64,000 nt of DNA, from IMG/VR virus record IMGVR_UViG_3300011008_000999. One strand, written 5' to 3'. Position numbers and translations under genes: made by a program. The notes below the pieces were generated by a model. It ran no database searches. It was not told where the DNA came from and saw nothing but the letters and a program-made list of their open reading frames with translations. Positions 13,665 through 49,214 of this stretch are shown here, piece after piece. Each line of letters opens with the position of its first letter. Positions within the stretch are counted from its first letter, which is position 1. Source of the stretch: a virus. Lineage: Duplodnaviria; Caudoviricetes.

Positions 13665-14060
13665 TTAATCTTTTACTTCGACTAAAGTGTCGATTGACAA
13701 TGGGTTATTTTGAATAATACCAGGCAAAACGGAAGCATCATTACGCTGAGTACAAAGTATACAATGTATTCCAGCAGATCTTCCAAGCTGAGTAATACTT
13801 TGTATGTTACTAATAATCTCGTCTTTTAAAGCGTCTTCAGCTTTACCTTCAGTAGTTTTAATACCAGACTTACCAGTTAACTCTGCAATCTCATCTACTA
13901 CAATCAATAGACGAGGCATTTCATCTGTATAACATTTATCTACACAGTTCTTATTGACTGGAATCCAATGTTCTCCATCAAGTTGAATTTCAAGTTCTGG
14001 CAATTGAACTTCTACTTTTGCTTTAGCATTTTTACCAGTATCATTTAACATCCATCCCAT
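13665..14060 (-). CDS. FtsK-like ATPase fragment (Walker B part) ending in a 12-aa split-intein IntN (13668-13703)
   Basis: PRLLIVVDEIAEL; QLGRSAGIHCILCTQR; ends IIQNN|PLSIDTLVEVKD, an intein block A pattern with Pro1. Confidence 0.85.
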   Translation of the reverse strand: MGWMLNDTGKNAKAKVEVQLPELEIQLDGEHWIPVNKNCVDKCYTDEMPRLLIVVDEIAELTGKSGIKTTEGKAEDALKDEIISNIQSITQLGRSAGIHCILCTQRNDASVLPGIIQNNPLSIDTLVEVKD

Positions 14061-14063
14061 TGT

Positions 14064-14957
14064 TTAATTCACCTCCAATTTACCTGCACCATATATAGTA
14101 TATCCATTATCATATATCTTAGTTGGTTCAGGAATAACATCTAATAAACTATTTTTATTAAAGTCATTTTTAGGATATTTGTCTATACCTAAAATCAATT
14201 CTTTTAATAAATGTTTTTGTTTATCAATATCTTCAAATTCATAAATATGTATTAGACGTATACCTTTATCTCGACATAATAATGACTTATGTAAATGATA
14301 ATCTTTAGGCGTTCCAGCATTTACAGAATGATACCATTTACCATTATACTCTATGGCTAATTTCAAATCTGGCAAATATATGTCTAATTCGAATGGATAA
14401 ATAATCTTACGTCTATTTTCTAGTATTATTCCTTTATAGAACGTTTTTATATATTCTACAAGTTCTTTTTCTGCATGTGAAGTGCTACAATTAGGCCTTT
14501 TTACTGATACATAGTCTATAATTTTTTGTATTTCATTGATAGGCACAAATTTAGTTTGACTATCCATATAAATAAAATTAACTATATTACTTGAATACCA
14601 ACCATGTCCATATTGTACTCTTAAATCATTCGCAAATATACAATTATGGTCAAGCTCAAATTGTTTTATTTTACTATTTCTAGTATCTTTCCATGCATTA
14701 GGATTAAAATGATCCTTGTCTGAATACATACATTCTGGCGAGCAATATTTTCCAATATATCCTATAGAGATAGTTTTGAACTTGGTATCTTTTCCACATA
14801 CTGTACATTTTCCTTCATTAGGTTTTCTTAAATATTTATCATAATACTCTTTAGCTGAAAGTTTATGTTCAATAAGATGATTACCTAATACTTTACATGT
14901 TTTACTACATATTATACAAGTTTGTGATTGATCTCCATTACGATCGAACCATCCCAT
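14064..14957 (-). CDS. homing endonuclease (Zn finger plus Vsr-like nuclease)
   Basis: CIIC..HLIEH; EGKCTVCG..YCSPEC; PFELDIYLPDLKLAIEYNGKWYH. Confidence 0.8.
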   Translation of the reverse strand: MGWFDRNGDQSQTCIICSKTCKVLGNHLIEHKLSAKEYYDKYLRKPNEGKCTVCGKDTKFKTISIGYIGKYCSPECMYSDKDHFNPNAWKDTRNSKIKQFELDHNCIFANDLRVQYGHGWYSSNIVNFIYMDSQTKFVPINEIQKIIDYVSVKRPNCSTSHAEKELVEYIKTFYKGIILENRRKIIYPFELDIYLPDLKLAIEYNGKWYHSVNAGTPKDYHLHKSLLCRDKGIRLIHIYEFEDIDKQKHLLKELILGIDKYPKNDFNKNSLLDVIPEPTKIYDNGYTIYGAGKLEVN

Positions 14958-14969
14958 ACTAACACCTCC

Positions 14970-15242
14970 TTAGATAGTAATCCAGTGATCACCTTCGTAC
15001 TGAATCAGTCCAAGTATTTCATCTTCTATGAATCTTACACCGTCAGATGTGCCTATAATAACTGTACCAATATTACCTGAAATCTTAACTACGATGAAAT
15101 ATGCTTCAGGGTCATTTACATCGTATACAAATGAGTCCTTTGAGATAAATTTCTTTTTAGTATCATCGTAGTCAAATTCAATTGGATCAATACCAAGCTG
15201 ATCAAAATAAGGTTTCATTGCCTCGTTAATATTAGTGTTCAT
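14970..15242 (-). CDS. hypothetical protein
   Basis: ORF in gene train. Confidence 0.6.
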   Translation of the reverse strand: MNTNINEAMKPYFDQLGIDPIEFDYDDTKKKFISKDSFVYDVNDPEAYFIVVKISGNIGTVIIGTSDGVRFIEDEILGLIQYEGDHWITI

Positions 15243-15246
15243 TCTT

Positions 15247-16083
15247 TTAATTTCCTTTCTTGAATAGGTTAAATTTTATTTTTTGTTGTGTATCTTTTTC
15301 TTTTATAAAACGATCTAAAATAAACAATAGATCTTCTGGAAGTCTATTACGAACTTCCTGTTTCATATCTTCAGGAACTCCATAAAAAGCTTCTGCCATA
15401 CTTCCTGCAATACAAGTTAATGTATCGCAATCACCACCAAGAGAAACTGCTGTACGTATAACATCTTCAAAGTCATTACTTTCTAAGAATGCTGTAATAG
15501 CTTGTGGTACAGTTTCTTGACATGTTTCTACATGATGATATGTAGGTCTAATTTCATCACAAGTTTTAGATAAATCATATCCAAATTCATCAATTACATA
15601 CTGTTTGATGTAGTCTTTATCTTTACCTGTTCTAGCTAAGAAAATAACTGAAGCAGTTGCTTCTGCACCTTTAATTCCTTCAGGATGATTATGTGTTACT
15701 TCTGCTGTAAGTCTAGCTACTTCTCTTGTTTTCTCTATAGTATTAAATAGCCATCCAACTGATGAAACTCTCATAGCAGATCCATTACCACAGCTATTAT
15801 ATGGTTCTGTATGATTTGTTTTAAGCCACCAAGAGAATCTTGTTCCATAACCTTCATCTGGATATAATGCTCCATAATGTTTCATAGACTTAACTATTGC
15901 TTTTTTAATCTTTTCATTAGACTTAAATCTAGTATCAAGTAGAGCTTCTGCTACTGCTAGAGTCATAACTGTATCATCTGTTTTTCTACTAGATTCGATC
16001 CATAATGGAAAATCTTTTCGTTTTTCACTTCTATCATATTCATAAGGTGCTCCAACCATATCACCTAAAATTGCTCCATACAT
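15247..16083 (-). CDS. ADP-ribosylglycohydrolase (DraG/ARH family)
   Basis: GAILGDMVGAPYE; TDDTVM; SCGNGSAMRVS; VTHNHPEG; GGDCDT. Confidence 0.92.
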   Translation of the reverse strand: MYGAILGDMVGAPYEYDRSEKRKDFPLWIESSRKTDDTVMTLAVAEALLDTRFKSNEKIKKAIVKSMKHYGALYPDEGYGTRFSWWLKTNHTEPYNSCGNGSAMRVSSVGWLFNTIEKTREVARLTAEVTHNHPEGIKGAEATASVIFLARTGKDKDYIKQYVIDEFGYDLSKTCDEIRPTYHHVETCQETVPQAITAFLESNDFEDVIRTAVSLGGDCDTLTCIAGSMAEAFYGVPEDMKQEVRNRLPEDLLFILDRFIKEKDTQQKIKFNLFKKGN

Positions 16084-16104
16084 AGGTAATTTCCTTTCTG
16101 TGAA

Positions 16105-16141
16105 TAAAAATCGAACCTAGTATATAAAATACCAGGTTCGA
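16105..16141 (-). terminator. intrinsic terminator
   Basis: TCGAACCTGGTAT/ATACTAGGTTCGA stem followed by TTTTT. Confidence 0.65.
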
Positions 16142-16149
16142 AATTTATT

Positions 16150-17874
16150 TTAATTATCATCTTCTAAATCTTCCTCAGATTCATTATCGAAGTAGAAACC
16201 GATCTTATGTTCTTTGTCTTTACCTCTATTGAAAATACGAGTAAGATTTAACATTCTTCGGCCATCAAAGCCTTTTTCATCACCTTCAGCATCTGCAAAT
16301 GTATAGAACTGAAATATAAAGCTTTCATTTACATCAAGTTCAATATTAGTAAGAATCGCTACACCTGAAGAAGCATTGAATTCTTTAATATGTGTTCTAA
16401 GCTCATCTAATAATTCAATTGGTTTATAGACAATAATATTATTTCTAAGTCTACCGCGCTTCTCAAAGTAATATGTTTTATTTTTAAGAACATTTGCTCT
16501 AGCTGTACCAGCGACACTTTCAAGTAATGGTTTAGTGAGTCTAGGATCTCTTGAATTATCGATAAGAGTTTCAAAGACTTCTTCCCAACCTCTTACCCTG
16601 TCATAATAGTCAGCTAATCTATGTTTAGCTACATATTTAGCAACTGCTTTACGATCTTTTTCTGGTGTATCATAGAAGTCATAGAAAATTTTAAGCATAT
16701 TAAGTATATGCTCTTCGAGTACATTGAGATCAATAATATCTCTATACATATTATAGATAATATATCTAGGTGCGTCAGACTTATACTTAGTTAATGCTCT
16801 CTGAACTGCACTAAAATATCCTAAACTTAACGCTGTATCAATATCTACACAGATAGTCATAGCTTCCAGACCAGATGACTGATATTCTTTAAACATCTTA
16901 TGTCTAAACTCAATTACTCTAGAATATTCTACATACGTCTTAATATTATTAAGAAGTTTGTTTTTAATATTTTCACCTATTGAAGAATCAGTATAGTTAG
17001 ACATAGTTATGTTTCGTTTAACTTCAGTCTTAGCAGTTTCAAAATAATCTGACAGTTTTAACTTATATGATGCATTAGAGTTTAACATACCTGCAACTCT
17101 ATTTTCTAAGTTAGGTACATTTACAGTTAAGAATTTATCGACATTTTCAATAAGCTGAGTAGTACTAACAGTGCTTCCAGATGTCCAAATCTTAGATTCT
17201 ATGTCTCTAATCCACTTTAAGATCTCGTCTCTAACTGCATCTAATTCCTTAGACTTTCTTTCAAATTCAGCTTGTTCCTGAGCTCTTTGCGCTTTGAAAT
17301 CAGCTTGTATTTTATTAAACTGTCCTTCATCAATTTCAACTACTCGACCTTTATCTAACTTACCGTAGAATACATAACCAGCATCATTTCTTACATAAGG
17401 TCTATAACACTTAACACGAAATACCCATTCAGTTCCACAAGGGAAATTTTCTGAATAAGTTTTCCATTCAGTAGATAAATCAAATGTACTTATGAGATTT
17501 TGAGGTCTAGTATAGCTAAATCTTGATCCATCATAATAACTTTCAAGTAAAGCTTTACCTTTAGCTTTTATAGTTACGTCATCATCAGCAAGATCAGTTT
17601 GAATATCAATAATTTTAGTTTCTTTTCCATCTTTACGCGTATATGGAATAAGTTTAGCTGTTACAGTAATAACACCACTTTCGGACTTTTTAGGTACAGT
17701 AAATGTAACAGTTTTTCCAGCCACAATCTGTTCAAGATGGTCTTCAGTCATATATCCTGGTTCAAAATAGTTATCATATACTTCTTTAAATATAGATAAG
17801 TTCTTTTTCTTACCAGCAGCATCAGTATATGAGTAATACCAACCATATGGACCATTTATTACTTTATTAGCCAT
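16150..17874 (-). CDS. hypothetical protein with an N-terminal repeat resembling 22583-23095
   Basis: 574 aa; TEDHLEQIVAGKTVTF..TAKL resembles TDEEVAALLAGQTIKF..TGKL. Confidence 0.75.
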   Translation of the reverse strand: MANKVINGPYGWYYSYTDAAGKKKNLSIFKEVYDNYFEPGYMTEDHLEQIVAGKTVTFTVPKKSESGVITVTAKLIPYTRKDGKETKIIDIQTDLADDDVTIKAKGKALLESYYDGSRFSYTRPQNLISTFDLSTEWKTYSENFPCGTEWVFRVKCYRPYVRNDAGYVFYGKLDKGRVVEIDEGQFNKIQADFKAQRAQEQAEFERKSKELDAVRDEILKWIRDIESKIWTSGSTVSTTQLIENVDKFLTVNVPNLENRVAGMLNSNASYKLKLSDYFETAKTEVKRNITMSNYTDSSIGENIKNKLLNNIKTYVEYSRVIEFRHKMFKEYQSSGLEAMTICVDIDTALSLGYFSAVQRALTKYKSDAPRYIIYNMYRDIIDLNVLEEHILNMLKIFYDFYDTPEKDRKAVAKYVAKHRLADYYDRVRGWEEVFETLIDNSRDPRLTKPLLESVAGTARANVLKNKTYYFEKRGRLRNNIIVYKPIELLDELRTHIKEFNASSGVAILTNIELDVNESFIFQFYTFADAEGDEKGFDGRRMLNLTRIFNRGKDKEHKIGFYFDNESEEDLEDDN

Positions 17875-17888
17875 GATCGATACCTCCT

Positions 17889-18698
17889 TTAGTTCGAATT
17901 AAAATGGTTATAAATAACTTGAATCATCTTAGGTCTAATTGTTATGAAATAAACTGCCTTGAAACAATCATCTGCTGCCATAGATAGTCCAACTTTCTGT
18001 GTAACTTCTTTTAAGTAGTCTGAATTATTATAAAATACTGACTGTAACATCTTAGAAGCAGCTGTATAATTTGGCCAAGCAAGTTCGTATTTTTCGTCAT
18101 TAAAGTTTGAATTAAGTGTATTTAAGTATGTTTCATCAATTCCATGTTCAGAAATATACTCAAATTCATCTTCATAATAAACTAAAATACTTTCAACCCA
18201 ATCATTATACTCATTTACATCAGTATCAATATTTAAACTAAGTGATTCATCTATAATTACTTTACTAATAGCTGATTTAAACTCCTTCATTCCAGGAGCA
18301 TTAGCCAGTTTCTGGAATGCATAGTTATGCCCAGTTCTTTCTAATAGATAATCATAACATTCATAGCAGTGAGATACAGTCATATCATGATTATAACTAA
18401 TATACTCAGAGATCTCCATATTATCTCTACTCCAGCCCTGTTTATTATTACCTACTTCATCCTGGACAACCGCTTTAAGTTTACCTGCAAACCAATGTTT
18501 AATCCAAGCTTCAGCTCTACCTCTGAAACCGCTATCCCATTTATCATTATCAATAATAAGACCAGTTCCTTCAGTATGACAATATTGCCAATACTTATTC
18601 ATTCCAGGACTATTTTCCCATTTACCATCAGATAACTGACCAATAACACCATCAATTATTCTAGCTCTAGTTGTGTTTCCTAAACTAATTGTCATCAT
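17889..18698 (-). CDS. hypothetical protein
   Basis: 269-aa ORF with RBS. Confidence 0.75.
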   Translation of the reverse strand: MMTISLGNTTRARIIDGVIGQLSDGKWENSPGMNKYWQYCHTEGTGLIIDNDKWDSGFRGRAEAWIKHWFAGKLKAVVQDEVGNNKQGWSRDNMEISEYISYNHDMTVSHCYECYDYLLERTGHNYAFQKLANAPGMKEFKSAISKVIIDESLSLNIDTDVNEYNDWVESILVYYEDEFEYISEHGIDETYLNTLNSNFNDEKYELAWPNYTAASKMLQSVFYNNSDYLKEVTQKVGLSMAADDCFKAVYFITIRPKMIQVIYNHFNSN

Positions 18699-18717
18699 GG
18701 TTATCTACCTCCGTAAT

Positions 18718-18790
18718 CCAAATAAAATGACTAATCTCTATATGAGACTAGTCATTTTTCACATTCTTACTCTATTATAATTAAATAGTT
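18718..18790 (-). repeat. dispersed promoter-hairpin unit
   Basis: CTATTTAATTATAATAGAGTAAGAATGTGAAAAATGACTAGTCTC...GAGATTAGTCATTTT. Confidence 0.75.
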
Positions 18791-18792
18791 CT

Positions 18793-19176
18793 TTATAATA
18801 CAAAAGTAGATATAATACGTCCAATTTCAGCTATATCTACACGACCCTTAAATTCAAAGGTAGCAGTAAAATTATTTGAAAATACAATATAAAGTTCTGA
18901 GTCTGGAAATATCTCCATAAATCCAGTAGTCTGAATAGTAAAGTACTGAACCTTAGAATAAGGCATAGTACAAAATGATTTTCTCTTACCTGTTACACCT
19001 TGTACATCAATAGCTATAATTCGCTTATTAGTAAATACTAACTGATCTCTAATTGTTTGAAAAGCCATAATTATCTCTTCATCAGGTACAAATAATGCCT
19101 GTACTTCACTTCTTACTGAATCATTTGATATCTGTTTAAGATTAAATACATTGTCTTTGTTAAAATTTACTGCCAT
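18793..19176 (-). CDS. bacterial PH domain protein
   Basis: RDQLVFTNKRIIAIDVQGVTGKRK..PYSKVQYF. Confidence 0.85.
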   Translation of the reverse strand: MAVNFNKDNVFNLKQISNDSVRSEVQALFVPDEEIIMAFQTIRDQLVFTNKRIIAIDVQGVTGKRKSFCTMPYSKVQYFTIQTTGFMEIFPDSELYIVFSNNFTATFEFKGRVDIAEIGRIISTFVL

Positions 19177-19187
19177 GATACCTCTCC

Positions 19188-19733
19188 TTATGTATAGTTC
19201 ACTAATTTTTCATCAAGTTTCTTTTTATCCGCAATTGATCCATATAGACCTATGCAAATCGCATCAGCTGTATCATTATCCTTGATGATCTCATCACCTT
19301 TCTTTGGATGATGTACTACAATATCTAAATTTACTTGAGGATATTTTGATTCTATAAATGCAACTGCATCTTCTTTCTTTGCTGATCTATTACCTAGTAC
19401 TTTACTTTTCCAAGATTGTACATGTACAGCACTTATAGAAATCTTATCTGAGAATTCATTTATTATAGTCGCTTGTAAGAATGCCATACTTACAATATTA
19501 TACATTCTAGATACACCTTTATAGAATGCAATTTCCTCAAATAATAAATAGTCGTTTTTAGTCAGTTTGTACTTTTTAATGTACTCATTAATTTGTTTAA
19601 TGATTTTCTTTCTATGATGCCAGGCGGATTCAGAATCTGCATAATTCAATCTACTCCAGTCAAGTAGTTCTTCACCTCGCATGACACAGATAGAATTACG
19701 AGTTTTATTGCCTAAATCTATGCCTATAATCAT
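19188..19733 (-). CDS. RuvC-like Holliday junction resolvase
   Basis: IIGIDLG; FEE; SWKSKVLG..AKKED; DTADAICIG. Confidence 0.8.
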   Translation of the reverse strand: MIIGIDLGNKTRNSICVMRGEELLDWSRLNYADSESAWHHRKKIIKQINEYIKKYKLTKNDYLLFEEIAFYKGVSRMYNIVSMAFLQATIINEFSDKISISAVHVQSWKSKVLGNRSAKKEDAVAFIESKYPQVNLDIVVHHPKKGDEIIKDNDTADAICIGLYGSIADKKKLDEKLVNYT

Positions 19734-19909
19734 AATTAACCTCTTTCAATCTTTATAATATGTCCATCTTTATCAATATAAGGACTAATTTTGTTCATAA
19801 TAATTTCCCTATAAAAAGTTAGTTTTAGAAATATTAAATACTTTACAATATTCATTTACAAGTTTTTCAAGTTCAGGATCGTTTTGTATCATAATTTTAC
19901 CTCATATAG

Positions 19910-19940
19910 AAAGAGGGTACTCATTTCTGAATACCCTCTT
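19910..19940 (-). terminator. intrinsic terminator
   Basis: AAGAGGGTA/TACCCTCTT stem after phoH. Confidence 0.6.
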
Positions 19941-19947
19941 AATTTAA

Positions 19948-21351: not shown

Positions 21352-21365
21352 TGTTATTATCTCCT

Positions 21366-22031: not shown

Positions 22032-22074
22032 AACATGTTTCCTTTCATGATTTTTTATTAGATAGTCTTTCGAC

Positions 22075-22281: not shown

Positions 22282-22292
22282 GATAATACCTC

Positions 22293-25891: not shown

Positions 25892-26353
25892 TTATACCTC
25901 CTCAAATTTCTGCTCTTTACGATTATCGATCTCAGCATGCTCACCACTAAAGTCAATAACTGTAGTAGAGTTCATGTTATCGAGATCAATTTCTCCTTCA
26001 AGTTTTACGTCATCAGCAACCTGTGACGTCATTCCACTATAACCTAAATCATCAAGACCACGTTGTTTGAAATATGTCTCTGTAATCCATTTCTGTTGTT
26101 CAAAATAATATTGAACACGAGAAATCTGACCTTGCATCTTAGTTATACCTGCACCTTTATGAGTACCATCTACAGTAGTACCAAGTGTCGAACCAAGAGC
26201 CATCATTGATGCAGTCTGTTCCAAACGTCCAGCAACGATCTAAATACGAGCAGCACAATTATGGGTAAAGATCATTTTCTTATCCATTGTTGTTCCACTC
26301 TTATTTAGATCACCTCCTTTACGTTTAAAAACTTTTTCTAAAATATTTAACAT
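25892..26353 (-). CDS. split-intein IntC (ends THN at 26258) fused to the C-terminal FtsK-like ATPase fragment; in-frame TAG at 26240-26242
   Basis: RBS plus MLNILEKVFKRKGGDLNKSGTTMDKKMIFTHN|CAARI*IVAGRLEQTASMMALG..KGAG..RVQYYF, in frame with ORF 25892-26224. Confidence 0.8.
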
Positions 26354-26363: not shown

Positions 26364-27227
26364 CTATAATAATTTTCCTGCTCCATATACATGATAATTT
26401 CTTTCACTAGTATGTATTAAAACAGGCTTTGGAATCTTTCCAAAATTGTTTTTATTGAAATCCTTTTCATTATATAAGTCAATTCCATTTAATAAAGAAT
26501 TTAACTTATAAATCTGTATATTAAAATCTTCAAATTCATATATGTGTATAAGTCGTATATCTTTATTTCTGCACATAATTGATTTTCGTAAATGATAATC
26601 TTTAGCTATTCCAGCTTCTAATGAATGATACCAGGTTCCATTATACTCTACTGCAAGCGTTAATTCTGGAAAATATAAATCTAATTCTAATGGTGATATT
26701 ACTGTTTTTGTATTTTCAAATACCTTTCCATTATAATTGATATATTTTAGAATATTCTTTTCCTTATGACTTCTTCCACTTATAGGTGTATATTTGAATG
26801 ACTTAATAATATCGAGATATTTATTATCTACATATTGGTACATCTTTGATACACGTATAATTGGAATATCAAGTCTTTGCCAATCACGTCCATATAAATC
26901 AATTAACTTTACAATATGCGTACAATTATTTGATTTTTCAAATTCATCTATTATTTGATGCTTAGTTTTCCATTGATTTAAATGATCCACTTTACTAAAA
27001 TTGCTTTGGGCAATAACTTGACACCTTTTACAACAATACGTATTATATCCTCTATCCATTCCATAGAAGTTAGTTGGTCTATTACATACGAGACATATTC
27101 CTTCATTTGATTGTTTCATGTATTTATCATAATACGAATGTTTATCTAAATTATGATAACTAGTAATATGTTTACTTAATGGTTGAATATTTTTATATTC
27201 TTTACCACATATATTACATTTTACCAT
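26364..27227 (-). CDS. homing endonuclease (Zn finger plus Vsr-like nuclease)
   Basis: CNICGK..HITSYH; EGICLVC..YCCKRC; PLELDLYFPELTLAVEYNGTWYH. Confidence 0.8.
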   Translation of the reverse strand: MVKCNICGKEYKNIQPLSKHITSYHNLDKHSYYDKYMKQSNEGICLVCNRPTNFYGMDRGYNTYCCKRCQVIAQSNFSKVDHLNQWKTKHQIIDEFEKSNNCTHIVKLIDLYGRDWQRLDIPIIRVSKMYQYVDNKYLDIIKSFKYTPISGRSHKEKNILKYINYNGKVFENTKTVISPLELDLYFPELTLAVEYNGTWYHSLEAGIAKDYHLRKSIMCRNKDIRLIHIYEFEDFNIQIYKLNSLLNGIDLYNEKDFNKNNFGKIPKPVLIHTSERNYHVYGAGKLL

Positions 27228-30527: not shown

Positions 30528-31064
30528 TTAATAACTAATATTATCATATAAGTCGTTGTCATCAAGTTCGTCACCATAGACATGTTCAATTCCAGTGATT
30601 TCTGTCCAACCTTGATTATGAAAAAGTTTTAACAACTCCTCTTTTGTTTTATTTCTAGCTGGACACTCTTCATTCTTAAATGGGAATCCATTATAGTCAA
30701 ATTCAAGTTCAGGACCTTCAGGTGGACAATATCTATCACCAGCATAACCAGGACTAATTACTCTAATATTAGCTCTAACATCTGCTGTAACTGTAATATC
30801 AGTATAATCTATACTTGAAATCTCAAAATCATCAGCATCTTCCATAAGAGAACTAAGAATATCAAATATATCCTCTTCAATGTGATCAATGGAATCGATA
30901 ATCTCATCTATACGCACATCTGGAACATTTTCGGCCCACTTAAGAATAATTCTAATAGTCTGACGACCATGTGAATGATCTGGACCTCTATCGTAATCAT
31001 CATATCTATCCATAGATGAACTATTTGTTTCAAAACAACTGTTTCTAATTTTAAACATGGTCAT
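30528..31064 (-). CDS. FETNSSS-motif family protein
   Basis: N-terminal FKIRNSCFETNSSS. Confidence 0.75.
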   Translation of the reverse strand: MTMFKIRNSCFETNSSSMDRYDDYDRGPDHSHGRQTIRIILKWAENVPDVRIDEIIDSIDHIEEDIFDILSSLMEDADDFEISSIDYTDITVTADVRANIRVISPGYAGDRYCPPEGPELEFDYNGFPFKNEECPARNKTKEELLKLFHNQGWTEITGIEHVYGDELDDNDLYDNISY

Positions 31065-31082
31065 TCCTCCTTATTTATATTT

Positions 31083-31398
31083 TTATATCTCCAATATCTT
31101 ATTCATGTCAATATCTTTTTCATGTTCAATAAATTTTGGATTAATATCATTAAACTGTTTCATAAAGTCAGTTATGTCTTTAGCGTTAATATCTACTAAA
31201 TCCATATTAGTATGATATCCAGTCGTGTTTACTTTCCAAATAATATCTGACATATCTAACTTAAATCTCTCTAAAAAATCTTCTATAGCAAAATCAATAC
31301 CAGGACAAATCATAAATGGACAACGATTACTATGCATAATTAATGATTTTTGCTTCAAATATACAATCAAACACTGGAAATAAATATACAGTTTGCAT
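31083..31398 (-). pseudogene. frameshifted hypothetical gene
   Basis: RBS start MQTVYLFP at 31398 stops near 31330; continuation lies in another frame. Confidence 0.45.
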
Positions 31399-31404
31399 AT
31401 AATA

Positions 31405-31784
31405 CTACTCCTTATATATAGGTTTTCCTAAAAATCCTCCAAATTTAGTTAATACAGTAAATTCATCTGTAGTCCAAAATCTAAATTTTTTGTATTAACT
31501 GCTTTTCCTTCTGGTGATACAGATAAAGTAATATGCGGAATTGGAATAGCTTCATAAAGCTCTCTAAGTTCATCAGATTCACATGAGACTAATTTAACTT
31601 TATATCCTTCATTTACTTCGTCATTTCCGTATCCAGTAACTACAAAAGTAGCCTGCTGACCATATAAATGTTCATGACTTTTAGCAGGCTTAAATTCTGT
31701 TGTTATGTGTTTGAATTCTATATCTTTAGAAAGTTTGCTATCTAATGGACCTTGTACAAAGAATGCTTCATATACTACGCCCAT
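31405..31784 (-). CDS. 2H phosphoesterase-like protein; frameshift in T-run at 31476-31479
   Basis: Two HxT motifs (KHITT, PHITL); adding one T gives ..LDFWTTDEFTVLTKFGGF. Confidence 0.65.
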
Positions 31785-41076: not shown

Positions 41077-41100
41077 AAATTAAATACCTCTTTTTGTTTT

Positions 41101-41134
41101 ATTATAACAAGAAACCGTCAACTTGTAAATAGTT
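41101..41134 (-). promoter_or_regulatory. sigma70-type promoter
   Basis: AACTATTTACA-N17-TATAAT. Confidence 0.75.
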
Positions 41135-41136
41135 TC

Positions 41137-41502: not shown

Positions 41503-41513
41503 ACTGATACCTC

Positions 41514-41852: not shown

Positions 41853-41863
41853 ATTTATACCTC

Positions 41864-42364: not shown

Positions 42365-42379
42365 GATAAATACCTCCTT

Positions 42380-42753
42380 CTAAACAAAATGACCTGCTTC
42401 TTTCGAAACAAGTCATTTTTCACATTCTTACTTATCTAAAACTAATTTCATTCCTTTGCCCCAAGTCATAGTTTCTACTGGTGCATAGAGATCATTGAAT
42501 TTCTGACTTTTCTTAGGCTTGATATTGATCAGAGTAACTTTATTACCGTCCAAACTAATATCTCCTACTAATTGAAGTTCAGCTAATTCAGCTTCGACTT
42601 CCTCTTCTGTCATCTCTGATACATCAGCAATTTTAGGAATGTCTAATTCAAATTCATTGCTGTTAAAGTAACTTCCTAAGTAACTTAAAATCTTTTTCAT
42701 TTTGACTCCTTTGCTAGATATTTATATCTTACATTATTATAAATAAATAGCTC
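42380..42753 (-). repeat. promoter-hairpin unit interrupted by a gene between GTAAGA direct repeats
   Basis: CTATTTATTTATAATAAT-GTAAGA-[ORF]-GTAAGA-ATGTGAAAAATGACTTG...CAGGTCATTTT. Confidence 0.65.
42428..42700 (-). CDS. small protein, possibly winged-helix
   Basis: 90-aa ORF with RBS inside the repeat unit. Confidence 0.65.
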   Translation of the reverse strand: MKKILSYLGSYFNSNEFELDIPKIADVSEMTEEEVEAELAELQLVGDISLDGNKVTLINIKPKKSQKFNDLYAPVETMTWGKGMKLVLDK

Positions 42754-42764
42754 TTAGCCAAAAT

Positions 42765-42796
42765 AAAAGGAGTACAGTTTTCACTATACTCCTTTG
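42765..42796 (-). terminator. intrinsic terminator
   Basis: AAAGGAGTATAGTGAAAACTGTACTCCTTTT. Confidence 0.7.
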
Positions 42797-42819
42797 ATTT
42801 TAAGTTGTAAAATTAGGAA

Positions 42820-43956
42820 TTACAGAATAGCATCAATTGCGTTCTGAACACAATCTACATACTCATTCATATCATTCTCTTCAAGTACCTCGATGAGATC
42901 TTCAAGGGTTTTCTTGAGTTCGGCCTTGGTAGCGATCTGTCTTACAGGTCTCTTACCACCGGAAGTAATATAAAGAGTGAAGGTGTAGAATGCATCTGTA
43001 GGCTCAACTTTAGAGATACCACAAAGTCTACGTCTACCATTATCCGTGCCGTCCTTATCTGCAGTATAGATAGATACATTCATTGCATCCTTTGCATTTG
43101 ATCTAGATACAACAAGCTTAGTACCTCTACCACCTCTTTCAAGGTTATCACAGAAATCTTCGATATTAGTATAGAGTGCTTCCCATTCCTTCTGGTATGC
43201 TTCAGGTGTAGAACTTGTAAGATGTGCTACAAGACCATCTACATAACCTTCGAATTCAGAGCCATCTGCATTCTGGATTGCCTTAAATACCTTAGAGTTA
43301 GATCTAACAAGAGAGATAACCTCGTCCTTAGGAACCTTAGGACATACCCAAGTATCTTCAGGAAGACCAACTTCCTCATTAATCTGCTTTCTAAGAGCGG
43401 CGTGAACATCCTTAAAGTCTGCTTTACTTACAATATTACCCGGTCTCTGAGGAAGAGTACTACGAAGATCATCGTCATTTCCATATCTCTTGGAAAGTTC
43501 TACTGCTTCCTTATACATAGCCATAAGATCAGCAACTAACATACCACTGAAATCAGGATGATATGCAGAGAAGAATCTGGTTGTAGGAATATCACCTACT
43601 GCAACAGTAGAAGCATTCTGTTCAAACTCATCAGGATGATTTGCTTTGTATTCTTTCCACTTCTTATCTGCAGCTTCGATCTGAGCTTTATACTTAACAC
43701 CCCACTCAGCATTGTGCTCATGCTCTGCCCAAGTGTCCTTGACCTCATAATCAGTCTTAGCAGTATGAGTTACATAAGTAGGATCATCAGTACCAATTAC
43801 GATTGCCTTAATATCAGCTGCTACGTCTCTTGCAACATTGTGAATGAAAAGAGGAGTAGCACTATAAGTACCATCGTCATTAGGCTTGAAATATCGCTCA
43901 TCGATATTTCCAGACAGCTGAAACTTCTTTGTTGACAACATTTCAAATAAATTCAT
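42820..43956 (-). CDS. hypothetical protein, paralog of 59474-60226
   Basis: Shared YF..N.DGTYS.TPL.I.N.ARD and WKEYKA.HPDEF. Confidence 0.85.
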   Translation of the reverse strand: MNLFEMLSTKKFQLSGNIDERYFKPNDDGTYSATPLFIHNVARDVAADIKAIVIGTDDPTYVTHTAKTDYEVKDTWAEHEHNAEWGVKYKAQIEAADKKWKEYKANHPDEFEQNASTVAVGDIPTTRFFSAYHPDFSGMLVADLMAMYKEAVELSKRYGNDDDLRSTLPQRPGNIVSKADFKDVHAALRKQINEEVGLPEDTWVCPKVPKDEVISLVRSNSKVFKAIQNADGSEFEGYVDGLVAHLTSSTPEAYQKEWEALYTNIEDFCDNLERGGRGTKLVVSRSNAKDAMNVSIYTADKDGTDNGRRRLCGISKVEPTDAFYTFTLYITSGGKRPVRQIATKAELKKTLEDLIEVLEENDMNEYVDCVQNAIDAIL

Positions 43957-44006
43957 GATAAATCTCCTTTCGAATTATAGGTTCATTTATTTGATTTGAT
44001 ATAATT

Positions 44007-44040
44007 ATTATATCACGATCTAACCTATTTGTAAATAGTT
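44007..44040 (-). promoter_or_regulatory. sigma70-type promoter
   Basis: AACTATTTACA-N17-TATAAT. Confidence 0.75.
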
Positions 44041-44251
44041 ATTTATTAACTATTTTGAAGTATTTCATAGCACCAATTAATTCTTTTTCTTCTTCGGATT
44101 TAGCCATTGTTTTTAACATATAAATTTCGTCATCAGTTAGTTGTTTTCTAGCAGAAATTTTTGCCACTATTACTGAAATTATTATATAGACTACAACTAT
44201 TATCATCATTAACATACAAGCACAAATCCAACCTCTATCAAATTCAGTCAT
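44039..44251 (-). CDS. small membrane protein
   Basis: Single TM helix. Confidence 0.6.
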   Translation of the reverse strand: MTEFDRGWICACMLMMIIVVVYIIISVIVAKISARKQLTDDEIYMLKTMAKSEEEKELIGAMKYFKIVNK

Positions 44252-44415
44252 TTTAATTTCCTTCCTAAATAACTTCTATCTATTATTGGACAGCTGTCAA
44301 CCATAATTCATTAATAGTATCAGCAGATACATTATTATACAAATAGAATCCGCATAAAATACCTAAACCAATTACAAGTACTGCAACAATACCAAATATA
44401 ACTTTCTTTTTCATT

Positions 44416-44772
44416 TTAACAATATTTCCTTCCACTTCCATACGGTATTGGTGATCTAGATCCTCTATAGGTAAAGGTACCATCATCATTAACGATAAAC
44501 TCTAACCAAACATTGGTTTTAGGATTACCCAAATTAAAAGAATCATCACCTGTAATTTCAATTCCTTCAAGTTGGTCAAATAAATCTTGTAGACTATCTT
44601 CATCATCAAAACTCATTTGACTAAATAGAAAATCTTTGCCTCTGACAATATTTCTACCAAGAGCGCGTATGATACTGTATTGGTCAAAGAAATTTCTTTT
44701 CTCAGAGGCATCAATCATTTCTTTATAGAATCGAATTTTCTTAAATTCATTATTCTTAATCAATTGACTCAC
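44416..44772 (-). CDS. hypothetical protein
   Basis: ORF in gene train. Confidence 0.6.
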   Translation of the reverse strand: MSQLIKNNEFKKIRFYKEMIDASEKRNFFDQYSIIRALGRNIVRGKDFLFSQMSFDDEDSLQDLFDQLEGIEITGDDSFNLGNPKTNVWLEFIVNDDGTFTYRGSRSPIPYGSGRKYC

Positions 44773-45056
44773 CTTCTTTTTATATACTCATAATAAATCT
44801 TTTTAATCTCTTCCTGATCAGCTTTACTGATTTCAGTTTTGTATGTTTCTGCACTACCATCCTCAAAGCCTTCTTCTACAAAGAAATGGAATGAGTTATT
44901 ATCATCTTCCCAGACTTCAAAACCGAATAAAAGATAACCTTTGTCTCCATTATCTACAATATAGTCAGAAAACATATAACTGCCTTCTCCAGCATATTCT
45001 TTCAGATGTGCAAGATCTACATTTTGACATAAACCATATTGTGTTTGAACTACCAT
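44769..45056 (-). CDS. hypothetical protein
   Basis: ORF with RBS. Confidence 0.65.
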   Translation of the reverse strand: MVVQTQYGLCQNVDLAHLKEYAGEGSYMFSDYIVDNGDKGYLLFGFEVWEDDNNSFHFFVEEGFEDGSAETYKTEISKADQEEIKKIYYEYIKRR

Positions 45057-45067
45057 AACTATACTCC

Positions 45068-45547
45068 TTAATCTGCACTATATTCTCTATACCAATTTTC
45101 ATCATCAGAGTCTAAGTATTTATATTCTGGTGCAGGACCAATATTTGGTCTTCCATACTCACCATCTCTAAAATATTTTACTTCTGAGTCAGTTCCAAAT
45201 ATAGCAAACTTAAGTACTTCTTTGCTCCAACCATCAGGAACTCCCATATCTTCAGGATGATCCTTATACTTATCTACTGCTTCTTGAAAATATCTATCGT
45301 GACCACCATAAATAATCTCTTCTACACCTGAGATATAGAGGAAATTGACTAACTTATCTATATTCTCACGATCAGATTTCCAACCATGAATAATAGAATA
45401 TATAACTTTTTCTGATGGCTTCAAAGAAGTTTCATCATCTACATAAATGAATCTCTGTGGTACGTGAATACCCTGACTCTTAGGAATAATAAGTACATTA
45501 GCACTAGAGCTGTTTGTTTCAAACATTGAATGTCTAATCTGAATCAT
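45068..45547 (-). CDS. FETNSSS-motif family protein
   Basis: MIQIRHSMFETNSSSA. Confidence 0.75.
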   Translation of the reverse strand: MIQIRHSMFETNSSSANVLIIPKSQGIHVPQRFIYVDDETSLKPSEKVIYSIIHGWKSDRENIDKLVNFLYISGVEEIIYGGHDRYFQEAVDKYKDHPEDMGVPDGWSKEVLKFAIFGTDSEVKYFRDGEYGRPNIGPAPEYKYLDSDDENWYREYSAD

Positions 45548-45559
45548 ATTATCATCTCC

Positions 45560-45982
45560 TTATCTATGAATATCTAAAACCGTAAAATCTTTTGGAATAT
45601 TTTTATATTCATCATAATCTGGCGTATCTAAATATATTGAACTTGAATCAAATAAAAATGCATCGAGGTCTTCTTGTTTCATATTATAGCCAAACATATA
45701 AGAATCATAATCAAATGTATCACCTACATCATTAATTATATTGATACCTTTATAGCTTAAATACTGAATAAATTCTGCTGCATGACCTTCATCTTCAGCT
45801 TTATTATACATAAAAGCTAATTTATCTTCTACAGAAGCATTTTTATCTAAACTATATGTATCAACCATTAATCTAGACATTTTTATTTCTTTAGGTATTT
45901 TTAATGACGGATTAGGTGGAATGCAAAATACATCTGCACTAGAACTATTAGTCTCAAACATCGACTGTCTAATTTGTATCAT
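45560..45982 (-). CDS. FETNSSS-motif family protein
   Basis: MIQIRQSMFETNSSSA. Confidence 0.75.
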   Translation of the reverse strand: MIQIRQSMFETNSSSADVFCIPPNPSLKIPKEIKMSRLMVDTYSLDKNASVEDKLAFMYNKAEDEGHAAEFIQYLSYKGINIINDVGDTFDYDSYMFGYNMKQEDLDAFLFDSSSIYLDTPDYDEYKNIPKDFTVLDIHR

Positions 45983-45998
45983 AATATATTCCTCCTAT

Positions 45999-46466
45999 CT
46001 ACCAATTTCCATCTTCATCATCTTCTAAGTTAGTTTCACATTCCTCTTCAAATGTACACATAATAATCTCATACATATCAGTACCTTTGAAAGTATGTAT
46101 ATTCTGAAATGGTTCATTTGAAGGATTACACTCCTGAAGTAAACTTCCTGGAATATCTGCTTTATAGACACATGAGTTGATGTCTTTATAATATTCACAT
46201 CTATTATTCCAGTCATACTCAAAGTTATTTTGGTTTAATGAGTCTATATCAACTTTTAGAACTACTATATCTTCAGGACATTCATCTGCACACTCTGCAT
46301 AAGCTTCTGCAGCATCAGCATTTAGTGCTAGAAATATCTTACCTTTAAGAGCTTCTACACCTATTTCATCCTTAAAGGCATGTTCAGGCGGGTTAATTAA
46401 CAGTCCATTTTGTTTTATAGACTCTAAATTTTTTCTGTCAGTTGCATGATAGAGATATAAACTCAT
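45999..46466 (-). CDS. putative ADP-ribosyltransferase-fold protein (Tpt1/KptA-like)
   Basis: LYHATD..NLESIKQNGL..IFLA..A..YA..VVLKVD..Y..DIP. Confidence 0.6.
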   Translation of the reverse strand: MSLYLYHATDRKNLESIKQNGLLINPPEHAFKDEIGVEALKGKIFLALNADAAEAYAECADECPEDIVVLKVDIDSLNQNNFEYDWNNRCEYYKDINSCVYKADIPGSLLQECNPSNEPFQNIHTFKGTDMYEIIMCTFEEECETNLEDDEDGNW

Positions 46467-46493
46467 GTTGTTACCTCCTCATCATTAGTCATT

Positions 46494-46859
46494 TTATGGC
46501 TTTTCTACTAAAATATCAAATCCTCTACCGTAATATCTATTACCTTCGTCACCATAAACATCGATTATCTTTATTTTAGTATCTTCTGCATATACAAAAA
46601 TTTGAATCACTTCATCATAATTTCTCTGGTCATATACAAGTTCGACATTAGTAATAGCATTATCACATTTATTAAGTTCTTCTAAGTAATACCAACCATT
46701 ACCACATCCGCCACAACCTTCATTAGTGCGAATTCTTAACTGTGTTCCATCATTTAAGATTATATATCCGTTTTGATCATCAATAATATGTACTTCATCG
46801 ATCTTTTTATATAATAATACTTTTTTGAGCTCTTCAATATCTTCGCCATCTATTATCAT
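46494..46859 (-). CDS. hypothetical protein
   Basis: NEGCGGCGNG motif. Confidence 0.65.
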   Translation of the reverse strand: MIIDGEDIEELKKVLLYKKIDEVHIIDDQNGYIILNDGTQLRIRTNEGCGGCGNGWYYLEELNKCDNAITNVELVYDQRNYDEVIQIFVYAEDTKIKIIDVYGDEGNRYYGRGFDILVEKP

Positions 46860-46889
46860 ACCAATAGTCCTTTCATCTAGTATGTTTTA

Positions 46890-46960
46890 AGTAAAAATGG
46901 CCTACCTCAAAAGAGGTAAGCCATCATTGTTCACATTCATTCTATTAATAATAAATAGCT
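46890..46960 (-). repeat. dispersed promoter-hairpin unit
   Basis: CTATTTATTATTAATAGAATGAATGTGAACAATGATGGCTTACCTCTTTTGAGGTAGGCCATTTTT. Confidence 0.7.
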
Positions 46961-46979
46961 CTTTAAGTGGTTTTTAGCC

Positions 46980-47183
46980 TCAATGGCTATCTCTCCAAAT
47001 ATTGTGTTTTTCTCTAGCGACTTCACAATATTCAGTATAGTACTTGAAAGTAGCGTCCATTACTTCAGACACATACTCAGAGAAAAATTCATCTTTACTC
47101 ATGACATGCATACATGAAAAATCTGAACTAGCTCTCAATTTGATTGATTCAAATATCTCTTTTAACTTCTCTTCACTTTTCAT
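46980..47183 (-). CDS. hypothetical protein
   Basis: ORF with RBS. Confidence 0.6.
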   Translation of the reverse strand: MKSEEKLKEIFESIKLRASSDFSCMHVMSKDEFFSEYVSEVMDATFKYYTEYCEVAREKHNIWRDSH

Positions 47184-47192
47184 ATAACCTCC

Positions 47193-47666
47193 TTACTGAA
47201 CAAAATCCTTAATATCTGTAAAGACTAGAATCTTAATATCATCTTTATACTTAGAAGCATTCTCAAAGTCTTTTATATATGTATCGCATCTTTTAAGAAC
47301 TGCGTTCTTATCTATATCTTGAGGAATCCTAAGACAAGATTCCTTACAACCATCTGTCATAATTACGATAGATGCAAATCCATCTTTAACTGCTTCCTTA
47401 TACTTCTTCTCATAATCAGCAAGAACTAGAATCGCATAAAGCAAACAACCAAGATCATAAATACTATTAGGTCCATAGAATTCTTTTGCAATAGTATCAA
47501 GTTCTTTAGTATTAAAATCAAACTGATCAGGTCCGCCCCAACTATCCTGAGACCAGAAACCTTTATTTATTCCATTAAGGCAAATATTTCCTTGATAAAT
47601 GTCAAAACCTTCATGATCTTTAAACTTTTTAAGGTTCTTAAGTGAAATTCCTTTAATACTTGCCAT
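47193..47666 (-). CDS. hypothetical protein
   Basis: First gene after promoter; RBS. Confidence 0.7.
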   Translation of the reverse strand: MASIKGISLKNLKKFKDHEGFDIYQGNICLNGINKGFWSQDSWGGPDQFDFNTKELDTIAKEFYGPNSIYDLGCLLYAILVLADYEKKYKEAVKDGFASIVIMTDGCKESCLRIPQDIDKNAVLKRCDTYIKDFENASKYKDDIKILVFTDIKDFVQ

Positions 47667-47697
47667 GTTATAATACCTCCTTAAATATTATGGTTTT

Positions 47698-47731
47698 ATT
47701 ATAACATGAATTTGATAAAATGTAAATAGTT
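47698..47731 (-). promoter_or_regulatory. sigma70-type promoter
   Basis: AACTATTTACA-N17-TATAAT. Confidence 0.75.
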
Positions 47732-47732
47732 T

Positions 47733-48029
47733 TTACCAGTCATCTCCAACTAAAATATCAAGACATTTGTCACCATCATGATCAAACCAATTATATCCAA
47801 GTACCTTAGCTTTTTCAGAATAACTATCTCCATCTAATGACGTGAGAATATTTTTATCCCACTTAAATACTCCACAAAATCCAATAATATCATTAGTTAT
47901 AACATCTACACTATGTACCTGTACAATATTAATAGTAGTATCTTTAAACATTTCATTAAAAGATATTGGATTGTCTACTATAGTAAAATTCTGGTATCTA
48001 GGTAATTTCTTTATAATTTCCTTCCACAT
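47733..48029 (-). CDS. hypothetical protein
   Basis: ORF with RBS. Confidence 0.65.
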   Translation of the reverse strand: MWKEIIKKLPRYQNFTIVDNPISFNEMFKDTTINIVQVHSVDVITNDIIGFCGVFKWDKNILTSLDGDSYSEKAKVLGYNWFDHDGDKCLDILVGDDW

Positions 48030-48115
48030 AGTAAATCTCCTTAAAGAAAAACACTTACTTATTATCTAAGTAAGCGTTATATCATTACTAGTTCTTACAT
48101 ACAAATTAATGTTGT

Positions 48116-48664
48116 TTATGCTATTAAAGAAGAAATATGATAACCTCTAACAAAATCATATGTTTCTTCTACATTTAAAAGTGTTTTAGCTGTATCTTCA
48201 ACAAAGATTATTTCTCTGTTGTGTTTATCATGAATTTCTTTTAACTTTTCCAGTTTTTCCTTTGAATTTCTGACATGAATCACATTTTCTTCTTTTATAG
48301 TTGGAAAAAATTTTTTTATAGCTTCATTTTTTCCTTTTTCGACATTTTCCTGCGTTACAGTTAAAATATATACATCTTCTTCATATAATTCATTTAATAT
48401 ATACTGCATTGTTTTAGGAATTTTAACGTTTTCATAAATATTATGTAATTTTGAATATTCGTTTATATCATTATCTTTACAAGGAAGAAGTCTATCATTT
48501 GCATAATCAAAATGTGTTAATGTTCCATCAAAATCAAATACAATAGTTTTAAATTTCAGTAAAGATATAAGATCCAAAACATTTCTTATATATTCTTCTT
48601 TTAAGCTAGATATATCAATATCATTTAACATTCTTCCAGCGTTTATAATATTATCACCAAACAT
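48116..48664 (-). CDS. HAD-superfamily hydrolase
   Basis: IVFDFDGTL; FVEDT. Confidence 0.8.
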   Translation of the reverse strand: MFGDNIINAGRMLNDIDISSLKEEYIRNVLDLISLLKFKTIVFDFDGTLTHFDYANDRLLPCKDNDINEYSKLHNIYENVKIPKTMQYILNELYEEDVYILTVTQENVEKGKNEAIKKFFPTIKEENVIHVRNSKEKLEKLKEIHDKHNREIIFVEDTAKTLLNVEETYDFVRGYHISSLIA

Positions 48665-48785
48665 ATATTAAAATTAAACTTACCTTTCTTGAATAATTAT
48701 TTCTCCCTCATAGAATATAATATGCAGCTTAGCGATGACGGCACTATTACTCAAAGACTTATAGCTTCCTTTGCTCCCTGCATAT

Positions 48786-49214
48786 TTAATTGTAGAGATA
48801 CTCGTATATCTCCAATGCTGACATTTCTTTTTCTTCACCAGCAATTCTAACTTTAATCTTTTCATCCTTGTCAAATTCTCTACCAGTGATCCAAACTTTT
48901 CCTGTCCAATCAGTAGGCTTGTAGTCTGCCATATCATTCAGACCTATTTTCTGCATCTTCTTATTTCGAGAATACATAACAGATCTACCTATTCTCAAAA
49001 TTTCTGCAGCTTCTTGAACTGAGTTAGCAACTGCAACTACACCATTCATTCCTTTAAAAGGATAAAATTCTGTCTGTTTTATATCAACTAACGCAACTGA
49101 TATTTTATTGTTATGTTCAATTTATTTTAGGCACTAGGCCTAAATACAATGGAATATGACATTCCTCAAAGTAACACTATTGTGCGAAATGAGTCCTCGT
49201 TTAGCTGTCTCCAT
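48786..49214 (-). CDS. 12-aa split-intein IntC fused to FtsK-like ATPase fragment (post-Walker A); 24-nt in-frame stop-containing gap at 49119-49142
   Basis: Strong RBS; METAKRGLISHN|SVTLRNVIFHCI[gap]EHNNKISVALVDIKQTEF..EAAEIL..MYSR, in frame with ORF 48786-49049. Confidence 0.8.

Follow-up and report, generated by a model that had tools for sequence, protein, structure and literature searches.

The fractured genes described by Dassa et al. 2009 (PMC2677866) are organised around one endonuclease gene, with an intein half on either side of it at a single locus, and a preprint of 2023 states that natural inteins were known only as one gene or two (bioRxiv 10.1101/2023.01.30.526203). Here we describe a gene for an FtsK/TcpA-type ATPase that is broken into four scattered pieces (P1 to P4) in a virus of the Caudoviricetes, IMG/VR record IMGVR_UViG_3300011008_000999. 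The analysis centers on a stretch of 64,000 nucleotides (nt), below called the window, which is the reverse strand of bases 47126-111125 of the 331,944-base-pair record with direct terminal repeats (genome position = 111126 minus window position). With the genes of Dassa et al. this locus shares an enzyme gene broken at an intein with intein fragments left on the gene parts, free-standing zinc-finger/nuclease homing-endonuclease genes at the breaks, and the targeting of P-loop sites.

Three other groups of systems are close to what we found. Engineered three-piece inteins (Ssp/Rma DnaB, Npu DnaE, gp41-1; bioRxiv 10.1101/2023.01.30.526203) likewise consist of a short N peptide, a core and a short C peptide; they are laboratory constructs made from class 1 inteins that reassemble to the Hint fold and ligate their exteins. 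Class 3 inteins such as MchDnaB1 (6rix) and Msm DnaB-1 (6bs8) resemble the present ones in having no N-terminal Cys or Ser, Cys at F:4, a His-x-Trp block B, Thr ahead of His-Asn and an insertion site after the GK of a P-loop (PMC7664689, PMC5222942). They need no N-terminal nucleophile because Cys F:4 attacks first (PMC5222942). The T4 gene 60 cassette with MobA and the byps of Magnusiomyces mitochondria, finally, have a stop directly after the take-off codon and a matching landing codon, as found here. The gene 60 cassette was reported only in topoisomerase genes, and a preprint citing Bonocora 2011 states that the insert protects DNA from the MobA endonuclease (bioRxiv 10.1101/2022.08.31.505936). 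The product of the broken gene is related to the FtsK/SpoIIIE and TcpA translocases, with which it shares a Walker A/B motor domain and N-terminal membrane helices; the nearest structures are TcpA of pCW3 and the FtsK motor.

P2, P3 and P4 are located at window positions 49214-48786, 14060-13665 and 26257-25892. Like all inserts, the intein core and the endonuclease genes of the window they are on the minus strand, and they are transcribed in the order P2, P4, P3, as an earlier note on this DNA had read them. The coordinates of the piece translations in that note are also right, whereas three in-frame stops in P2 and one in P4 went unmentioned. The first piece that it predicted exists: P1, at genome 5009-6301 and thus 42 kb outside the window, ends in TGGGK plus a block-A-like tail. 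Three membrane helices are predicted in P1, which also encodes the first part of the ATPase domain; the end of P1 reads ...ALCVGS, an intein of ~150 residues, TGGGK, the 15-residue tail A-IYIDQSVEVQSDEM and a stop. Regular expressions for an open reading frame (ORF) ending in GxxGxGK did not find P1, because its cis intein interrupts the P-loop. A complete Walker A (GSTGGGK-S) would arise only once the cis intein is excised and P1 is joined to P2; Walker B (LLIVVDE) is encoded in P3.

That the pieces belong to one gene is best seen from contiguous alleles, which were obtained in a scan of metagenome contigs (L-numbered loci). Locus L080 (L080:685-2499, on a 75-kb contig; 49% identity) is a single uninterrupted ORF of 605 residues that carries P1, P2, P3 and P4 in canonical order. 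It matches the Pfam FtsK_SpoIIIE family (PF01580, cut-off 24 bits) with 76 bits and E 3.6e-21, the TcpA coupling protein 6o1w with 1.4e-18 and the FtsK motor 2iuu with 8e-16. By themselves P2 (profile positions 69-135, 18 bits) and P3 (positions 167-218 of 221, 21 bits) both stay under the cut-off. When the exteins are joined in silico, they align to L080 over the full length with 41% identity and gap-free at GS/TGGGK, GK/S, NN/C and both stop-insert sites (slashes mark junctions). The sole irregular junction is P2/P3, where this phage has 17 extra residues. This end-to-end alignment means that the pieces are parts of one FtsK/TcpA-like gene and not of different paralogs. In the alleles L058-L061 (85% identity) P1 and P2 form one ORF, ...CVGSTGGGKSVTLRNVIFHCIEHNNK..., without any intein, and contiguous alleles read ...GSTGGGK-SVTLRN... 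at the Walker A junction. Four related complete phage genomes (G001-G004, 250-467 kb) contain orthologs of every piece, and a renewed search of the viral collection by single-protein and alignment scans returned the same four genomes only. A megablast of 14.5 kb against GenBank phages and a tblastn of P4 against phages gave no match.

The intein remnants at the breaks are most complete at the P3/P4 junction. P3 (13665-14060) is a clean ORF of 131 residues. Its extein (13704..14060) contains Walker B (...LLIVVDE...) and ...CTQR..., and ends in ...IIQNN; the remainder (13665..13703) is a block-A fragment of 12 residues, P-LSIDTLVEVKD, in which Pro occupies intein position 1, followed by the stop. 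This tail is kept in all four related genomes, and in a tblastn of P3 against phage FtsK-like genes every match ends at or before residue 119, just before the tail. P4 is preceded by a ribosome-binding site (RBS) and a leader (26258..26353), a 32-residue block-G fragment ending in ...MIFTHN; the P4 extein begins with the five codons of CAARI (26243..26257), of which Cys is the +1 residue, and continues from VAGRLEQ... to the stop (25892..26236).

The earlier note had also predicted a separate intein core, and in fact there are two, one per junction. Pfam intein models run over the genome gave nothing or one 11.6-bit match; the inteins were found via the relatives. Core-2 (55409..55765), belonging to the P3/P4 junction, is a free-standing class 3 intein core of 118 amino acids (aa) with blocks B and F and no exteins, and has orthologs in all four relatives. 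A profile of the five orthologs matches the class 3 MchDnaB1 intein 6rix with E 6.8e-10 over chain residues 16-134 of 145. Only the first ~15 and the last ~10 residues of the matched intein chains, i.e. the first and last strands, are missing in core-2. Its His-Gln-Trp and Val-x-Cys align to His65/Trp67/Cys124 of 6rix, which are catalytic there (PMC7664689). Judged by sequence, the P3 tail corresponds to the first absent strand (block A, position 1 being Pro) and the P4 leader to the last (block G with Thr-His-Asn and Cys at +1). The core family comprises 93 free-standing clusters, 84 of them near full length (116-144 residues), on contigs of up to 467 kb. All 85 core homologs share His52, Trp54 and Cys103 of core-2, and T-H-N/C is found in 58 of the 61 P4 homologs that bear a leader. 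A complex model of the P3 tail region and the P4 leader with the core as partner, built from shallow alignments of our own, reached an ipSAE score of 0.85 against 0.43 for the best control. Of 80 solved complexes 58 reach the mark applied, and of 110 mismatched pairs 2 do; the runs share at least 77% of contacts, and the partner has a predicted local distance difference test (pLDDT) value of at least 85. All modelled contacts fall on residues 118-131 of P3 and 24-34 of the leader. Given the shallow alignments and the similar solved inteins, the score speaks for likeness to the intein fold and not for binding of these copies.

At the P1/P2 junction the second free core, core-1 (genome 17599-18189), begins where the P1 tail stops and ends with block F. 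The P2 leader (49179..49214) is a 12-residue block-G fragment ending in ...GLISHN and contributes only block G in this phage. Read from 49214, P2 consists of an RBS upstream, METAKRGLISHN and then SVTLRNVIFHCI; the latter represents the first 12 codons of the extein (49143..49178) and begins with the +1 Ser that completes Walker A. The rest of the extein, from EHNNK... to ...YEYLYN and the stop (48786..49118), is colinear with L080. The cut in this intein is at another point in G004 and L077, where block F is on a P2 leader that is 33 aa long in both, which means that the fracture points differ among lineages. In addition, P1 carries a complete cis intein five residues ahead of the split site, within the P-loop (GS/.../TGGGK). 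By sequence it matches the class 3 DnaB inteins 6rix, 6riy and 6bs8 (E ~6e-4), including the block-F Cys. Intein position 1 is Pro in the P3 tail and the cis intein and Ala (Ser in G003) in the P1 tail of the five genomes; the terminal Asn and nucleophile are HN/C at P4 and HN/S at P2. From these features we infer that the P1/P2 and P3/P4 joins would each be made by a class 3 intein split over three genes.

The third break is of another kind. Neither where P2 ends nor where P3 begins were intein motifs found in the five genomes, and L058 retains the P2/P3 break though its P1 and P2 are fused. The expected product is therefore two chains and not one: P2/P3 is probably a plain gene fission, with P1+P2 providing Walker A and P3+P4 providing Walker B. 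The proposal of the earlier note that one protein is assembled from at least four dispersed genes and an intein core thus holds for the four genes but probably not for the single chain.

The in-frame stops are TAG, TAG and TAA at 49142-49122 in P2 and TAG at 26242-26240 in P4. DNA alignments place each of them within a short insertion relative to uninterrupted alleles. Insert A (49119..49142) has 24 nt, composed of TAG, a hairpin with the second TAG, TAA and the landing codon ATT, after a putative take-off ATT at 49145-49143: TGT ATT [TAG GCC TAG TGC CTA AAA TAA] ATT GAA. It is missing in G001, G004 and L055-L061; the intein-free alleles L058-L061 read ...CVGSTGGGKSVTLRN...HCIEHNNK... and P2 of G001 reads HCIQH. 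Twelve other alleles have variants with other loops and lengths at this site. Three lineages retain the 7-bp stem containing TAG while their loops differ (CTAGT, GAAA, CTG), and the site is also occupied by an unrelated 38-nt insert, which lies between Val codons (Val/Val) and forms a separate hairpin with the loop GTAA. The hairpin motif of insert A was found once in the genome, and insert A was thus rejected as a multicopy element. Insert B (26237..26242) in P4 is TAG followed by the landing codon ATC after the take-off ATT, CGT ATT [TAG] ATC GTT, so that nine bases stand for one Ile. The same allele occurs in L084, seven further variants were found at this or the HN/C site, and P4 of G001 is uninterrupted (CAARIVAGR).

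To compare alleles, P2 inserts were called by a dynamic-programming parse of 35 loci, whose only tie-break favoured jumps starting at a stop. The first 25 extein codons of P2 contain 24 distinct inserts, at four positions. Nearly all (22/24) begin with TAG, which immediately follows the last codon in frame; the closing codon of 16 inserts encodes the amino acid of that last codon again (ATT/ATT or ATC, CTT/CTT or CTC, GTA/GTT), and 11 are not multiples of three. The eight P4 variants include AAT[TAG AAT]TGT, AAC[TAG TTT TAG AAC]TGC and ATT[TAG...ATT]GTT. Pooled over both pieces, 30 of 32 inserts open with TAG, and the landing codon is synonymous in 21 of 32. Of the 21 distinct P2 alleles with an intein 18 have inserts, compared with none of the three intein-less ones (Fisher p 0.01, uncorrected for relatedness). 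The stop after the take-off codon, the synonymous landing codon, the putative hairpin at longer gaps and the homing-endonuclease neighbours are the pattern of T4 gene 60, and on this basis ribosomes most likely hop over the inserts by peptidyl-tRNA hopping.

Alternatively, the stops might be passed in another way, by readthrough of TAG where the insert is in frame, by frameshifting at the others, or by removal of the inserts from the mRNA. We consider this unlikely, though it survives better than the other alternatives. Several inserts are indeed in frame and just 6-9 nt long, and gene callers read them open with TAG=Q; proteins of the large collection that show Gln at insert sites translate only with this assignment. 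Three genes for tRNA-Gln are present in the phage, as are two odd tRNA-like genes whose anticodon loops have 6 nt, and 11 of the 32 variants have no matched landing codon. The exceptions are three variants at an Arg site (among them CGT...AGT or CAC), ATT...GTC three times, ACC, CTC and TAGT. However, the in-frame TAG, TAG and TAA of insert A would need three readthroughs, and inserts of 5, 10, 11, 16, 17, 29 and 38 nt shift the frame and contain further stops. Readthrough cannot cope with three consecutive stops and frame-changing inserts. Moreover, landing codons vary yet stay synonymous (ATT/ATC, CTT/CTC, GTA/GTT, AAT/AAT), as would be expected if the same tRNA pairs again; neither readthrough nor excision predicts this.

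The genome (32.7% G+C, 40 tRNA genes, one tmRNA) is read by the standard bacterial code, which fits its ORFs. An alternative genetic code was rejected, as ORF statistics with TAG, TGA or TAA as sense gave no special gain for TAG. The two tRNA-like genes, at genome 150356-150445 and 150545-150618 outside the window, are reported by ARAGORN as '?(Arg|Ala)' and '?(Arg|Pro)'.

It is less probable still that P2 and P4 are dead in this phage, with the stops terminating translation and the ATPase being dispensable or replaced by paralogs. Such a decay would be in line with four in-frame stops, no suppressor tRNA among the 40 tRNAs and the use of TAG as an ordinary terminator genome-wide (58 of 512 long ORFs), and with other FtsK/HerA-like genes at genome 39730-40455, 261666-262346 and 323613-325199. 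A second copy was not found, in that searches of this genome gave no paralog of P2 or of the N-terminal domain of P1. The relaxed selection that the earlier note had set against its own reading was not seen; the pieces are under strong purifying selection. Compared with G002, the ratio of nonsynonymous to synonymous substitution rates (dN/dS) is 0.029 in P2 downstream of the stops, 0.067 in P4 downstream of TAG and 0.060 in P1, with dS of ~0.4 to 1.2; P3 has 0.07-0.09 (0.073 against G002). G002 shares inserts A and B with this phage by descent, yet at a dS of ~0.9-1.2 dN/dS past the stops is 0.03-0.07. The corresponding ratio of polymorphisms (pN/pS) is 0.11 for the first 12 extein codons of P2 in insert-bearing alleles and 0.02-0.14 for the mini-exons between inserts in 18 such alleles. 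Codons of P4 just 3' of TAG vary synonymously between genomes, and no start codon is found there. Low dN/dS, synonymous change and the missing start codon indicate that the regions past the stops are translated in the frame of the intact gene and argue strongly against decay. In addition, at least 49 of the best 120 P4 clusters were called with a start downstream of the leader, as an upstream interruption would give, and are still conserved. The partner genes P1 and P3 and both cores are all intact.

Least likely is that the intein fragments are non-covalent docking tags and the ATPase assembles without ligation: non-covalent assembly of endonuclease-fractured phage enzymes such as split NrdA is known (PMC3045599), and the P2/P3 break needs non-covalent bridging anyway, but docking alone would not need the full catalytic set that is strictly conserved across separate genes (85/85 cores, 58/61 leaders), and the breaks GK/S and NN/C are within the P-loop and in a conserved stretch of the FtsK motor domain.

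We therefore regard four scattered gene pieces, two three-gene class 3 inteins, a P2/P3 fission and hopped inserts as the best explanation of the locus, with a probability of roughly 0.6. P1, P2, P4, P3 and the two extein-free core genes would encode a membrane-anchored FtsK/TcpA-type ATPase. P1 would first excise its cis class 3 intein within the P-loop; subsequently P1 and P2 would be joined at GK/S, and P3 and P4 at NN/C. Each join would bring together a block-A tail of 12-15 residues on the N-extein, a free core with His B:10 and the nucleophile Cys F:4, and a block-G leader of 12-32 residues ending in ..[TS]HN on the C-extein. With P2/P3 as a plain fission the product would be a two-chain ATPase. 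Ribosomes would hop from the take-off codon to a synonymous landing codon, i.e. ATT...ATT over 21 nt in P2 and ATT-TAG-ATC in P4. The P2 and P4 inserts are close to intein and endonuclease homing sites and, by analogy with T4 gene 60/MobA, may shield the DNA from resident endonucleases. The wider proposition, that these are natural three-piece class 3 inteins with a free core, two of which rebuild one ATPase from genes dispersed and permuted over 92 kb, and that the hopped TAG inserts of 3-38 nt, XXX-TAG-XXX stop-hops among them, have arisen repeatedly beside homing sites as endonuclease protection, is offered tentatively, at a little under even odds.

A number of points weigh against this explanation. 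What we observed is the anatomy, the colinearity with intact alleles, the conservation and the purifying selection; splicing, hopping and a protective role of the inserts are inferred. The split-intein pieces are not adjacent, unlike those of all described fractured genes: endonuclease genes do adjoin P1-P4, but each intein is in three fragments instead of two halves on neighbouring ORFs around one endonuclease gene. The cis intein of this phage ends in Tyr-Gln/Thr instead of His-Asn, whereas that of three relatives has a terminal Asn. Position B:12 is Leu or Phe, not Trp, in core-1 and the cis intein, both of which keep Cys F:4 and the His, and the P2 leader has Ser and not Thr at G:5. As to the inserts, the hairpin of insert A (-8.8 kcal/mol, z -1.8) is only modestly more stable than shuffled sequences (9/200), and insert B has no hairpin (z +0.5). 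Matching flank codons could be target-site duplications from insertion, and 6-nt in-frame inserts could simply be read through. Finally, the alleles are related, and insert counts do not equal independent events.

In direction of transcription the genome order is P1 at 5.0 kb, core-1 at 17.6, core-2 at 55.4, P2 at 61.9, P4 at 84.8 and P3 at 97.1. The four extein-bearing genes span 92 kb; in the window core-2, P2, P4 and P3 are 6-23 kb apart, and P1 is ~50 kb from core-2. G001 and G002 have P4 before P3 in common, and G003 has P3 before P2. G004 retains the ancestral order P1, core-1, P2, P3, core-2, P4 in a region of 18.5 kb, where unrelated genes, a TnpB-like ORF and endonuclease genes separate the pieces. 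In this genome an ORF of 408 residues (L028:10788-12014, minus strand), TnpB/IS605 OrfB-like by eye, is directly upstream of P2 beside a truncated endonuclease gene. In the present phage, a C-terminal FtsK-like half that is paralogous and includes Walker B (genome 39730-40455) and an extein-less Hint-like ORF (31034-31552), both outside the window, are probably parts of a second fractured FtsK-like gene.

Directly upstream of P2 is a truncated zinc-finger remnant of a homing-endonuclease gene (49201..49521), whose counterpart in G002 is the C-terminal part of an ORF of at least 321 aa resembling the endonuclease genes of the window. An ORF bearing zinc fingers (26364..27227) directly upstream of P4 resembles the two endonuclease genes around P3, by eye the one at 14064-14957; in Pfam it gave only weak zinc-finger matches and no family match for its nuclease part. 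P3 is flanked by two homing-endonuclease genes. The downstream one (12058..13635, 525 aa) matches PHROG 3339 with E 3e-96, Pfam DUF7487 and, weakly, the MTES_1575 nuclease. The upstream one (14064..14957; PHROG 3339, E 1.5e-33) opens with P3's own original first codons (MGWFD..., as in G002), and its 3' end gives P3 a new RBS and start that resemble the G001 allele (14000-14090; DNA comparison with G002 and G001). An endonuclease cassette seems to have replaced the 5' end of the P3 gene. Another endonuclease-like ORF follows P1. The endonuclease ORF downstream of P3 in G002 (L010:7035-8102) ends with a recoded copy of the last 16 residues of P3 (..VQNNPLSADTLVKTKD).

Introns add further interruptions. 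In G002 and G003 one or several ORF-less group II introns interrupt P3 between LPG and IIQNN, five codons ahead of the intein junction (L010:6389-6968; L011:6325-8161). An intron-like insert of ~380-440 nt follows KQTE in P2 of L020 (reverse strand, ~1095-1520), L062-L064, L068, L074, L079 and L083; Rfam at gathering score left the ~440-nt insert of G002 unclassified, L020 being the only locus with the insert that was scanned. The window itself contains an ORF-less group II intron at 5237-5817 on the minus strand (RF02004, 105 bits; RF00029, 60 bits), directly upstream of an exon whose start lies just ahead of a GSPGSGKT P-loop (ORF 4120-5307), so that another ATPase gene of the phage appears to be interrupted at its P-loop.

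Splicing and hopping together would show how far inteins, endonucleases, introns and inserts can fragment a gene under strong purifying selection, and that gene order is freed once assembly occurs at the protein level. If splicing is real, these would be the first natural three-piece inteins, of the cysteine-dependent class 3, with N-side tags of only 12 residues and C-side tags that in some relatives are as short as 6-8. A Hint domain could then be maintained by selection as three genes, and ready-made parts for peptide-tag ligation would be at hand. If hopping is real, one locus would provide dozens of natural, sequence-diverse short bypass sites, stop-hops included, to a field long based on T4 gene 60 and one yeast mitochondrion, and a second link between bypass inserts and homing-endonuclease immunity.

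In comparison with the known systems, the pieces of this gene are 6-50 kb apart and permuted, being colinear only in G004, and each intein resides in three genes, whereas the fractured genes of Dassa et al. 2009 keep two halves at a single locus. One protein here combines two junctions and a cis intein, plus an intein-free break. In contrast to the engineered three-piece inteins, the present ones are natural, of class 3 and conserved in ~90 sequence clusters. The described class 3 inteins that we compared are contiguous and mostly have Ser or Thr at +1 (PMC7664689, PMC5222942), while those found here have Pro or Ala at position 1, Cys at +1 of P3/P4 and a domain in three parts. Unlike FtsK/SpoIIIE and TcpA, whose motor it resembles, the ATPase would consist of two chains and is not recognised by Pfam from its single pieces. 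As in T4 gene 60, the take-off codon and stop of insert A may lie in a stem-loop, and the insert is beside a homing-endonuclease site in a fractured phage gene. The gaps differ, with 3-35 nt against 50 in gene 60, no likeness to the gene 60 cassette was noticed, and many different inserts occupy five positions of one gene. According to a review of 2016, no natural in-frame stop-hops were known (PMC5009743); inserts of the insert B type, XXX-TAG-XXX with nine bases for one amino acid, have the form of the stop-hop of synthetic E. coli constructs (PMC5009743).

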